Positions 5,001 to 11,836 of a stretch of DNA of 57,335 nt are shown one piece after another (positions within the stretch are counted from its first letter, which is position 1; every line of letters begins with the position of its first letter). A model generated the notes under the pieces. It had not been told where the DNA came from. It did no database searches and worked only from the letters and a program-made list of their open reading frames with translations. Both the position numbers and the translations under genes were made by a program. This DNA is from an uncultured Chromatiaceae bacterium (GTDB taxonomy: Bacteria; Pseudomonadota; Gammaproteobacteria; JAADHS01), in assembly GCA_945787615.1 (NCBI GenBank), contig CALZJI010000002.1:1-57335 (forward strand). The letters run 5' to 3'.

Positions 5001-6399
5001 GTCGCCCTGTCTTCCCAGGAGCGACATTTCTTAGCGCTTCGATTAACGCATCCCTCAGCTTTAAGCGCGCCGGAGATGACTGACACCAAAGATGCTCGCG
5101 CGCCTGAGCCGCCCATCTTCGTACTTCTAGTTTCTCTGCGCGTAGGTTAACGTTGTCGACTTTAGGCGCAATGGCGTCAAACCATGATTGTGCGTCGTCT
5201 AATGCGTCTTTCTGGACAAGAGATAAGTGGATATCTTGCGCGACTTTAAGCGCTACGCGCAAGCAAAAGGAATCACGTTCGTTTTCGAGAACCTGACCAA
5301 GTATACGCTCGCTGAGTTTTATTAACTCTTTCGATACTATCAAGTTGCCGAGTTGCAATACAGCGGCCGCCCGAACTTGCGGTGCGTCATCGATGCAGGC
5401 CAGATACACTATTGATTCCTTGATGTTCTTGTGGGGTGCTTTATTGAGTTCATTGGCGAGTGCCTGGCGAACCGATGAATTGGGATCAAGTCGTATAATT
5501 GGCAGTAGTTTGGCCAGAGCGGGGTGATGCTTTAGGTTTTCGCAAATAAGCTTGACCGCATGGCGCCTGACAAAAAGATCATCTCCCGAAGAAGGTTCGC
5601 TCAACCTACGCGGAAGCACTTTAATGAGCGCGGCGCGCGACAAGCGGGGTAACAGCGAAAGTGCTTCGCATTGTATCCAGACCTCTTGGCGGCGCTCTAG
5701 CGAGAATCGGTAAATAGACTGCAGCGTTGTCTCCGTAACGCTGTCCTCCCTTAGCCTATCGGGCATGGCGCTTAACGCTGTTGCCAAACAACGAAACGTT
5801 GCGATCCGCACTCTTGAATCACCCTCGTAACTCAAAAGCGGCGTTAGGTGGCGTTCCAGCTCTAGCCGCCGCCAATACTGTTGCCTCGAGCGGTCCTCTT
5901 CTCTCTCGTCGCAAAGTAATGAATGTGACCATGCGCCGAGGCGATTTAGGTAGAACGTGAGTCGGCGCTCCGTTTCGATGTGTTGGTGATGATAACGTTC
6001 TACCACTACATCATAGCCAAACCACCGCGAAAACGCGCGGCGGTCGCCGGCAAGTTGGCGCGAAGTGGCACCCAGGTCTTTTGCGAAATCGAGAATATGT
6101 TGCCGACGCTCGCTTTCCATGGCAGCACCGTTGTAACGCCGCGTAAACTCGGCGTAACGTTTCTGGGCCGTTGTGATACGAAGCTGTTCTTTGCGGATAC
6201 GGTCCTTTATGAATTCAATGAGTGTTTGAATGAATTCGGTGCTCTTTCCATCTCCTTTGATCGAAGCTGTATGGTCCTTTTTTTTGGAACGCCAAGCGTA
6301 AAAGTCATTTTTTAAGGCGTCGAGGAGTTTTTTTTCGACGGGAGCGAGTCGAGGGTGAATGCCAAGCGCAAAAATTTCAGTTACAGCAGGCTTAGTCAC
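2023..6399 (-). CDS. Giant (1458 aa) HEAT-repeat protein with a central PgsB/CapB-like (Mur-ligase superfamily) amide-ligase core and a long basic helical C-terminal extension
   Basis: The core spans about aa 700-1100 (nt ~3100-4300). A hydrophobic helix (LSQLAVFLTAITALFVGKHLYF) is followed by the P-loop LVLGGWGTRGKSGT (nt 4135-4167). Further matches are YSVVSKTTGCEAMFLY, WECMALTPSFV, NTYPDHEDLQGP, FINGMSANE and LVNNRADRIARSQVFA. These line up motif by motif with Bacillus PgsB as I recall it (NGIRGKST..., GKTTGTDARMIY, SECMAVNPDY, NVLEDHMDVMGP, FVNGFAAND, MNCRADRVDRTQQFA). The N-terminal ~700 aa carries HEAT/PBS-lyase-like units (DDAPQVRAAAVLQLGNL, DPNSSVRQALANEL, GDSRVRIATFRCL). The GTG start overlaps the upstream gene by 8 nt. 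Confidence 0.85.
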   Translation of the reverse strand: MTKPAVTEIFALGIHPRLAPVEKKLLDALKNDFYAWRSKKKDHTASIKGDGKSTEFIQTLIEFIKDRIRKEQLRITTAQKRYAEFTRRYNGAAMESERRQHILDFAKDLGATSRQLAGDRRAFSRWFGYDVVVERYHHQHIETERRLTFYLNRLGAWSHSLLCDEREEDRSRQQYWRRLELERHLTPLLSYEGDSRVRIATFRCLATALSAMPDRLREDSVTETTLQSIYRFSLERRQEVWIQCEALSLLPRLSRAALIKVLPRRLSEPSSGDDLFVRRHAVKLICENLKHHPALAKLLPIIRLDPNSSVRQALANELNKAPHKNIKESIVYLACIDDAPQVRAAAVLQLGNLIVSKELIKLSERILGQVLENERDSFCLRVALKVAQDIHLSLVQKDALDDAQSWFDAIAPKVDNVNLRAEKLEVRRWAAQAREHLWCQSSPARLKLRDALIEALRNVAPGKTGRLRKALLKQHSEETLGRVLSLIAQADYGLELSHGIFESKLKRGHAFGFRSWRLWHEMRNGATDKRQGFRHTTGRIFHGTVHAPSAIMAELAETRVPGEPLFMASEQGWRPYLPLLDEIISSLDQGITATPVRCYTSEGITEIVPPRSLIKRFVARTALTRRFSYYAQLRNWHEGDQTQPNAYLRELRRLGIEVAHRPYTRGGEGLPNVDTTVQRFFPVAIPWSETDLWARMESYFVSVYENSLSQLAVFLTAITALFVGKHLYFNRAIRRVRNRLPLVLGGWGTRGKSGTERLKAALMNALGYSVVSKTTGCEAMFLYAPPYGKLREMFLFRPYDKATIWEQAAIMRLADRLQSEVFLWECMALTPSFVSVLQDEWVRDDIATITNTYPDHEDLQGPAGINIPEVMTNFIPKSSVLLTTEEQMLPILVTAAENRGTRTRSVGWLEAGLLCPDILARFPYEEHPYNIALVLTLADELGVSSDFALKEMADRVVLDLGVLKAYPVATLRGRRLEFINGMSANERFGCLNNWQRMGFADHDYEKNPGTWLTTLVNNRADRIARSQVFANILVNDLSADRHFLIGTNMDGLVNYIRNAWERFVHDLTLWPNAQPAEDHDAEELLADWAWRFRVPFKEQHVKGRLEAMLTDQLDRAALTRVLELWHTPESVEHEFERLRLTHKEEIVSYYKEGFNAYSEYCELSKQVSLATEEDRSKLNQGFREQLWRWFERKLIIISDPYLSGDEIVNKICEITPPGFHNRMMGMQNIKGTGLDFVYRWQAWEACYDACQDLRAGLGQTDQDQRRASDKIINTLKKGARGDTRRAQEGLRALANYREYGFLCEEYVSETIDVVKNALFAQKESFQAELRIIESNLKSAMEQTRAKTRSGARQGFITVLATAIEGFLDAGDAVKRRKFADRIYKDLANQRITHERAALELQKLIKRQKGGWLAKRLSAFVDLLSAGNARKKTDDSAPTPETDTGKKRRNRDSAFDNTN

Positions 6400-11836: not shown

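Follow-up and report, generated by a model that had tools for sequence, protein, structure and literature searches.

A giant protein with a predicted 14-stranded outer-membrane barrel in a PgsB/PgsC-type operon, a candidate polymer conduit of diderm bacteria

The stretch of DNA analyzed here (hereafter the window; 57,335 nucleotides (nt), contig CALZJI010000002.1 of assembly GCA_945787615.1) comes from an uncultured Chromatiaceae bacterium and carries an operon of seven genes, in the order CHASE2 kinase-like protein, receiver protein, double PgsC fusion, p824, p315, giant, and HEAT plus PgsB fusion. The subject of this report is the giant, a protein of 1814 amino acids (aa) encoded at 6392-11836 on the minus strand with an ATG start. 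Its open reading frame (ORF) has exactly the coordinates and the length given in the original prediction, which had been made from the sequence without database searches. All operon genes and all features of the giant described below are on the minus strand. Downstream of the giant is a 1458-aa fusion of HEAT repeats and a PgsB-like amide ligase (2023-6399; TIGR04012, E 5.5e-58, which is below the equivalog cut-off). The upstream partners are p315, a lipoprotein-like protein of 315 aa (11833-12780) and a paralog of aa 356-648 of the PgsC fusion, p824, an envelope protein of 824 aa whose hydrophobic N-terminal stretch resembles a signal or an anchor and which has a beta-sandwich module in common with the giant (12716-15190), and the PgsC fusion itself, a 1082-aa protein with two PgsC/CapC modules (15187-18435; PF14102, E 2e-41). 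The ATG of the giant overlaps the stop codon of the p315 gene in an ATGA, and at the other end the gene overlaps the PgsB-fusion gene by 8 nt, its TAA falling in the GTG start region of the latter, so that these three genes are probably translationally coupled.

The giant begins with a plausible Sec-type signal peptide, as had been proposed. It was read from the sequence as aa 1-20, MKLFIYFFLFSFCILPASYA (11777-11836), with cleavage before ELD, and a hydrophobic N-terminal stretch is found in 61 of the 69 full-length homologs. Classification as a lipoprotein was rejected, since there is no lipobox at the cleavage region. Neither Pfam nor NCBIfam gave a match to the giant at E <= 0.01, and no PDB sequence was matched, whether the query was the giant alone or a family profile of 70 rows.

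Two AlphaFold2 (AF2) jobs, based on family alignments of 43 and 41 rows, span the whole protein (aa 1-1200 and aa 1200-1814). In the C-terminal model, with a mean predicted local distance difference test score (pLDDT) of 87.7, a mostly low-confidence or disordered linker (aa 1446-1495; 7352-7501) ends in the conserved LGxQEDG(TWS) just before strand 1 of a predicted 14-stranded outer-membrane beta-barrel (aa 1496-1774; 6515-7351) with a putatively arginine-rich lumen. A conserved tail follows (aa 1775-1814; 6395-6514), consisting of GRGxRDFxPxE and then a short helix at aa 1792-1800. The 14 strands are long and amphipathic, and the pLDDT of 10-residue blocks is mostly 90-98. The four strands that the original prediction had quoted, i.e. 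LEYGLKHYF, VVNLDWQQW, VHLQWRHDF and FFLSLTWHG, correspond to the predicted strands S11 to S14. The barrel that it had placed in the last ~400 aa was thus recovered, but over a shorter extent, namely ~280 aa plus the conserved tail of 40 aa.

When the modeled barrel was compared with the PDB by Foldseek, the best matches were to the 14-stranded OmpG (2iwv, 2x9k, 2f1c, 4ctd and 7q5c), with E between 2e-8 and 5e-6, template modeling scores on the target (TMt) of 0.59-0.66 and ~300 aligned columns. Barrels with 12, 16 and 18 strands (EspP, general porins and OprD/Occ, respectively) had lower TMt values of 0.29-0.43, those of the 16-stranded porins being 0.29-0.40. A total of 260 matches were obtained at E <= 1e-3, and outer-membrane barrel proteins made up all 50 of the 50 matches listed. 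Alternation over 70 homologs is seen in all 14 strands, in which the mean hydrophobic fraction is 0.54-0.79 for one face and 0.10-0.45 for the polar face. The putative external loops are 13, 5, 13, 26, 8, 9 and 4 aa long and the periplasmic turns 4, 6, 7, 2, 2 and 5 aa, lengths which fit a barrel with its N-terminus in the periplasm.

Mean-field direct coupling analysis (DCA) was applied to 196 barrel sequences (effective number, Meff, 186), with gappy columns and rows filtered out. Single couplings are noisy at this depth, and we therefore relied on the aggregated strand-pair statistic alone. The best antiparallel-diagonal score of S1 with S14 was 0.32, which is above all 77 non-adjacent strand pairs (0.13 +/- 0.04, maximum 0.26); the 13 sequence-adjacent pairs scored 0.19-0.63. 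The strongest loop couplings on one side were L1-L3, L3-L4 and L1-L5, and on the other side T1-T2, T2-T3, T1 with the segment after S14, and the start of S1 with T6. As far as covariation can tell, DCA supports closure of the barrel between S1 and S14, and the proposed barrel has consequently withstood structure prediction with AF2, with DCA in favor of closure.

A BamA gene is present in the host genome (760-aa frame, E 8e-83). Three of four generic features of substrates of the beta-barrel assembly machinery (BAM) are thus present, namely the host BamA, a signal peptide and amphipathic strands in even number. The last strand ends in ...LSLTWH, and since the conserved tail of 40 aa comes after it, a C-terminal beta-signal would be internal. 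On the strength of the models, a C-terminal outer-membrane barrel is strongly supported.

A set of 88 lumen-facing positions was assigned from the sequence alternation alone, not from coordinates. In the giant these positions hold 19 Arg or Lys, 7 Asp or Glu and 4 His, i.e. a net charge of +12, while the family has a mean of +5.1 and a range of -2 to +12, with Arg at 16.8% and Lys at 1.9% of the positions. Two lumen residues are invariant (R1547 and Q1582), F1626 and R1628 are conserved in 97% and 94%, respectively, and R1506, R1530 and R1749 in 84-87%; overall, lumen positions are about as conserved as lipid-facing ones (entropy 2.32 vs 2.39). Outside the strands, conservation is highest in loop L4 (aa 1631-1656; DQDVFTxYKxxH), loop L6 (DxDR), the pre-barrel LGxQEDG and the tail. 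Two of the most conserved segments, aa 1480-1495 (7352-7399) and aa 1775-1800 (6437-6514), flank the barrel on the periplasmic side. The tail, which would be periplasmic by topology, could be a gate, plug or latch, and the LGxQEDG(TWS) of the low-pLDDT linker may form a gate or latch together with the GRGxRDFxPxE and helix of the tail.

The remainder of the giant is large and mostly ordered. The model of aa 1-1200 (mean pLDDT 85.8, predicted template modeling score, pTM, 0.87) shows one compact and rigid multidomain body, and over aa 37-1445 the AF2 models contain four related beta-sandwich modules, a helical bundle and an alpha-solenoid of 320 aa. Beta-sandwich module 1 (aa 37-295; 10952-11728; pLDDT > 90) ends with PEGNHTLTM at aa 274. 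It is followed by the helical bundle (aa 303-389; 10670-10930), in which RDNxxRxGGL and HTFYRDLLP are highly conserved in the family consensus, by the beta-rich domain 2 (aa 390-583; 10088-10669), and by the alpha-helical solenoid with ~16 helices (aa 590-910; 9107-10069). Beyond these are module 3 (aa 916-1051; 8684-9091), with AGLHELEL at aa 1028, a charged, poorly conserved and disordered linker (aa 1101-1162; 8351-8536; pLDDT < 50), helices at aa 1172-1224, and module 4 (aa 1226-1445; 7502-8161), with PRGQHTLRL at aa 1337.

Several modules with a P-x-G-x-H-x-L-x-L motif had been noticed earlier, and in the strict form P-x-G-x-H-x-[LIVM]-x-[LIVM] the motif indeed occurs twice, at aa 274 and aa 1337, the AGLHELEL of module 3 being a looser third copy. 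Its positions are kept in the family consensus and sit in long strands of the AF2 models. The motif-bearing modules are also related by profile alignment (hhalign), aa 171-297 aligning with aa 928-1051 at a probability of 97.8% (E 9e-13) and the other pairs at 77-87%, which shows that the sandwich modules are homologous repeats. The motif had further been reported from the neighboring p824. There the literal P-x-G-x-H could not be found, and BLASTP of the giant against p824 was not significant (E 0.67), but the module itself appears in both proteins: in a profile-profile comparison, a profile of 43 p824 orthologs matched module 1 of the giant (probability 92.6%, E 4.5e-7, 198 columns) and module 3 (84.8%), so that the module, though not the motif, is indeed shared.

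The helical stretch anticipated in the center of the protein was also found, and with aa 590-910 it is wider than expected. It appears to be tetratricopeptide repeat (TPR)-like by fold only, since Foldseek aligned the modeled solenoid with the TPR domain of AspH at a TMt of 0.35. Pfam profiles gave no TPR match in the giant itself, and a sub-threshold match to ANAPC3 in one out of 25 homologs. A Foldseek search with the model of aa 1-1200 returned no structural relative of the whole periplasmic body, the matches being generic multidomain proteins at TM ~0.1, e.g. Cry protoxins, malectin-like ectodomains and enzymes bearing carbohydrate-binding modules.

Where this body is situated is indicated by domains that some homologs have acquired. 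OmpA-type and SPOR domains bind peptidoglycan. Among 72 homologs, an OmpA-family domain (PF00691) was found in 13 and a SPOR domain in one, in each case in the N-terminal part, and a Pfam scan of five members confirmed the inserts. Relative to the giant, the OmpA domain is cleanly inserted behind the counterpart of aa 450, i.e. within beta-rich domain 2, and the SPOR domain is inserted at the start of the solenoid (aa ~610-618). Judged from these alignments, two independent acquisitions of peptidoglycan-binding domains have taken place in the N-terminal body, which therefore ought to be periplasmic. Furthermore, with 14 strands, an even number, both ends of the barrel should be on the same side of the membrane. 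From the topology and the inserts together we infer that the N-terminal part of the giant is periplasmic, and we consider it highly likely that the giant combines a barrel in the outer membrane with an N-terminal body in the periplasm. A role of this body as a scaffold is supported by the inserts and by the rigidity of the model (pTM 0.87).

A search with the barrel region against a protein library clustered at 50% identity recovered 654 representative proteins at E <= 1e-3 and 500 at 1e-10. In all full-length matches the barrel is the C-terminus of proteins of 1500-2080 aa, whereas shorter matches look like fragments, and the homologs are, where named in the source annotation, called "hypothetical protein". 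Related loci were sought with the 25 closest alignment rows in one genome per GTDB species. The 77 loci thus found belong to diderm phyla only, namely Gamma-, Beta- and Zetaproteobacteria, Thermodesulfobacteriota, Nitrospirota, Planctomycetota (including the cultured Stieleria marina K23_9), Acidobacteriota, Myxococcales, Spirochaetaceae and Cloacimonadota. The homolog search further added Alphaproteobacteria (Belnapia and Roseomonas) and Azoarcus sp. CIB (AzCIB_0194), so that all carriers are diderm. Canonical PgsB was looked for in 81 genomes from one carrier's phylum, and no match was obtained.

Stand-alone relatives of the barrel were searched for among short proteins only, where a 375-aa query gave 6 matches and a 32-row barrel profile 12; the two that were inspected proved to be split or frameshifted giants, located on long-read contigs of low coverage. 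One is an apparent stand-alone barrel of 502 aa (locus L088, 9001-10509), with a 1415-aa ORF ending 2 nt before it, and the other, of 325 aa (L089), is located on a long-read contig with 1.7x coverage and many broken ORFs. Both are pieces of giants, probably due to sequencing frameshifts rather than natural splits.

The neighborhood is strongly conserved. Neighbors were counted by tblastn with the operon proteins of the window, at loci with enough flank. The PgsB-fusion gene was located directly downstream of the giant and on the same strand in 71 out of 71 loci, and the PgsC fusion, p824 and p315 were found upstream in 43 out of 48. According to gene calls, the same seven-gene order occurs in Azoarcus sp. 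CIB and at the locus of a homolog with only 26% identity. In the three loci L056 (Stieleria marina K23_9, NZ_CP036526.1), L038 and L057, the giant adjoins the PgsB fusion, and no PgsC fusion, p824 or p315 was detected upstream, even at E 1e-2; in L056 a 1090-aa ORF of the opposite strand follows downstream. These genomes may have the cassette in a rearranged or split form.

Some further observations concern the partners and the surroundings. The paralogy between p315 and the PgsC fusion (aa 356-648) was seen by BLASTP (E 6e-5, with 22% identity over 306 aa). The His-containing segments APHSF, DMAH and LHGF are kept in p315, and the PgsC fusion has other residues at these places. No Pfam match and no significant PDB sequence match (best E 0.085) was obtained for p315. 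PGA_cap (CapA, PF09587) gave no match in the giant or in any operon protein. A gene of the CapA/PGA_cap family is present on another contig of the genome (C388, 2301-3149, minus strand; 431-aa frame, E 6.7e-82), outside the PgsB/PgsC operon; this is a widespread family with matches in E. coli too. A second candidate outer-membrane barrel was not detected in the operon, and among the three operon proteins compared with the giant by profile (p824 by hhalign) no further barrel showed up. Elsewhere in the window are a gene for an 819-aa DUF1631 protein (32580-35039, minus strand; near full-length match, E 3e-174) and, as further large genes of envelope type, those for a 1066-aa protein with DUF7948, SBBP beta-propeller and Calx-beta domains (36825-40025, plus strand), a 954-aa protein with spermidine-synthase-like and TPR parts (40062-42926, minus strand) and a 698-aa cadherin-like/Big_9 protein (43628-45724, plus strand).

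Being placed between polyglutamate-synthase-like genes, the giant is the best candidate for the polymer channel in these two-membrane bacteria. In the scheme that we propose, the giant would be the periplasmic and outer-membrane component of a conserved diderm operon for polymer synthesis and export, built on PgsB/PgsC-type proteins. The Sec signal peptide would carry it across the inner membrane, and BAM would presumably insert the last ~280 structured residues in the outer membrane, where they would form a monomeric barrel with 14 strands, a size like that of OmpG and both ends in the periplasm. The preceding ~1450 residues would stay in the periplasm as one rigid body, with a grip on the peptidoglycan in some lineages. 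This body might dock p824, which has a module in common with it, and the hydrolase-like lipoprotein p315, as analogy and operon structure suggest, and would take over the anionic polyamide chain as the PgsB and PgsC fusions produce it at the inner membrane. The chain would then leave through the arginine-lined barrel, in parallel with cellulose and BcsC, poly-N-acetylglucosamine (PNAG) and PgaA, and alginate and AlgE. The docking of the partners, the identity of the polymer and its conduction are parts of this scheme that we infer. By analogy, we think it reasonably probable that the barrel of the giant is the exit of the polymer. On a broader claim our opinion is evenly balanced, namely that the family serves an undescribed secretion system, trans-envelope and synthase-dependent, as its dedicated outer-membrane translocon and periplasmic scaffold. 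The cargo of this system would be a non-ribosomal poly-amino-acid (gamma-polyglutamate or a relative), and the system would occur in Proteobacteria, Thermodesulfobacteriota, Nitrospirota, Planctomycetota, Acidobacteriota, Spirochaetota and others.

Several points weigh against export through the barrel. Localization, pore activity and polymer identity are all predicted, by computation alone. The facing and charge of the lumen are read from the alternation pattern, and the charge, from -2 to +12, is not positive in every homolog. Loop L4, of 26 aa, and the 40-aa tail at the C-terminus are both conserved and might block the barrel, and the giant lacks the usual C-terminal aromatic residue of BAM substrates. 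A TM of 0.6 to OmpG means the same barrel size, not homology. Finally, the PgsB domain falls below the TIGR04012 equivalog cut-off, and the polymer may therefore not be gamma-polyglutamate itself.

The barrel could alternatively be a mere outer-membrane anchor or stator, as is the barrel of OmpA, with the scaffold tying the inner-membrane synthase to the peptidoglycan and the outer membrane, and with a polymer that stays in the periplasm, becomes attached to the wall or exits otherwise. For this speak the inserts in the homologs, whose binding of peptidoglycan points to tethering, the possibility that L4 and the tail fill the lumen, and the variable lumen charge of the family. We nevertheless hold it to be rather unlikely, because a barrel of 14 strands is larger than the typical anchors with 8, because R1547 and Q1582 are invariant in the lumen and F1626, R1628, R1530 and R1749 are conserved in at least 84%, because the lumen is as conserved as the lipid face, and because no other candidate for an outer-membrane exit was detected in the operon.

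Much less credible is an autotransporter-like function, by which the barrel would export the N-terminal 1450 aa to the surface as an adhesin or matrix-binding protein. The layout, with signal peptide, large N-terminal part, flexible linker and C-terminal barrel, does resemble that of type Va, and the barrels of EspP and EstA are among the Foldseek matches listed. However, the EspP barrel reaches a TMt of only 0.43, as against 0.59-0.66 for OmpG, the linker is disordered in the model and does not form a helix that fills the pore, the N-terminal part is modeled as a compact body of sandwiches and solenoid in place of a beta-helix, and the peptidoglycan-binding OmpA and SPOR domains inside it in homologs make sense only in the periplasm. 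Membership in type Va was accordingly rejected, there being no Autotransporter Pfam match, 14 strands instead of 12, no pore helix and no beta-helix passenger. That there is no membrane barrel at all, the C-terminus being a soluble beta-rich domain over-regularised by AF2 and the giant a soluble periplasmic or secreted scaffold, would agree with the missing sequence-level match to known barrel families and with the C-terminal extension after the last strand, but is hardly believable given the strict dyad hydrophobicity of 14 strands in 70 sequences, the aromatic residues at strand ends, the closure signal in DCA, the pLDDT above 90, the outer-membrane barrel proteins that exclusively make up the 50 Foldseek matches listed, and the restriction of the family to diderms.

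In the literature searched, we found no description of this operon, nor of an outer-membrane exit for polyglutamate-type polymers in diderms. A capsule survey reported CapB/CapC loci in many diderm phyla, including Planctomycetes, with no export component named (PMC5542703). The giant thus offers a concrete and testable export candidate, with a clearly delimited barrel (aa 1496-1774), lumen residues that are invariant or nearly so and a rigid periplasmic body with four repeated modules, and it defines a large protein family that has neither a name nor a profile. Cultured carriers exist in Azoarcus/Aromatoleum sp. CIB (AzCIB_0194) and Stieleria marina K23_9. If the proposed export holds true, the synthase-dependent principle of scaffold plus porin would extend from polysaccharides to polyamides, and the giant would be the first known scaffold-porin exporter for a polymer that is not a polysaccharide.

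Compared with known systems, the giant shares with OmpG a monomeric 14-stranded barrel of the same size, and OmpG is its best structural match (TMt 0.59-0.66). Identity in the structural alignments is, however, 8-11%, there is no match by Pfam, NCBIfam or PDB-sequence profile, and OmpG is a sugar porin without a periplasmic extension and unrelated to polymer export. With PgsBCA(E)/CapBCA(E) of Bacillus, the operon has the PgsB-like and PgsC-like core in common, but that monoderm system uses PgsA/CapA and works without an outer-membrane component, and nothing in it corresponds to the giant. AlgE offers the parallel of an Arg-lined, electropositive barrel proposed for a linear polyanion, to which the Arg-rich lumen of the giant, as deduced by alternation, can be compared. 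It differs in having 18 strands, in being a separate polypeptide from the TPR lipoprotein AlgK and in lacking sequence similarity to the giant, which with its 14 strands gave no match to the Pfam family Alginate_exp.

The closest analogy is to BcsC, PgaA/HmsH and PelB of synthase-dependent exopolysaccharide systems, each of which unites a periplasmic TPR scaffold and a C-terminal outer-membrane porin in one protein. The barrels of BcsC and PgaA have 16 strands, to be compared with 14 in the giant, which at E <= 0.01 had no Pfam match to BCSC_C or to the PgaA barrel family; its periplasmic part is mostly made of four beta-sandwich modules, with a solenoid of ~320 aa; and its partner is an amide ligase of PgsB/PgsC type and not a GT-2 glycosyltransferase, which makes a polyamide, rather than a polysaccharide, the probable cargo. 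Because of the strand number, the absence of BCSC_C, TPR and Alginate_exp matches, the sandwich-dominated periplasmic part and the amide-ligase synthase, we place the giant outside the BcsC, PgaA, PelB and AlgE families. The original prediction had drawn the analogy with BcsC and PgaA, and although it does not extend to family membership, as strands, Pfam and partner tell, the general architecture is the same as in the systems for cellulose (BcsC), PNAG (PgaA/HmsH) and Pel (PelB), i.e. a signal peptide, a long periplasmic region with a helical solenoid and a monomeric C-terminal barrel. The gene likewise belongs to the operon of an inner-membrane processive synthase, beside a periplasmic hydrolase-like protein, and its product is the sole barrel candidate detected there. 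Since the gene of the giant is embedded in a synthase operon, the analogy holds for both layout and genomic logic.

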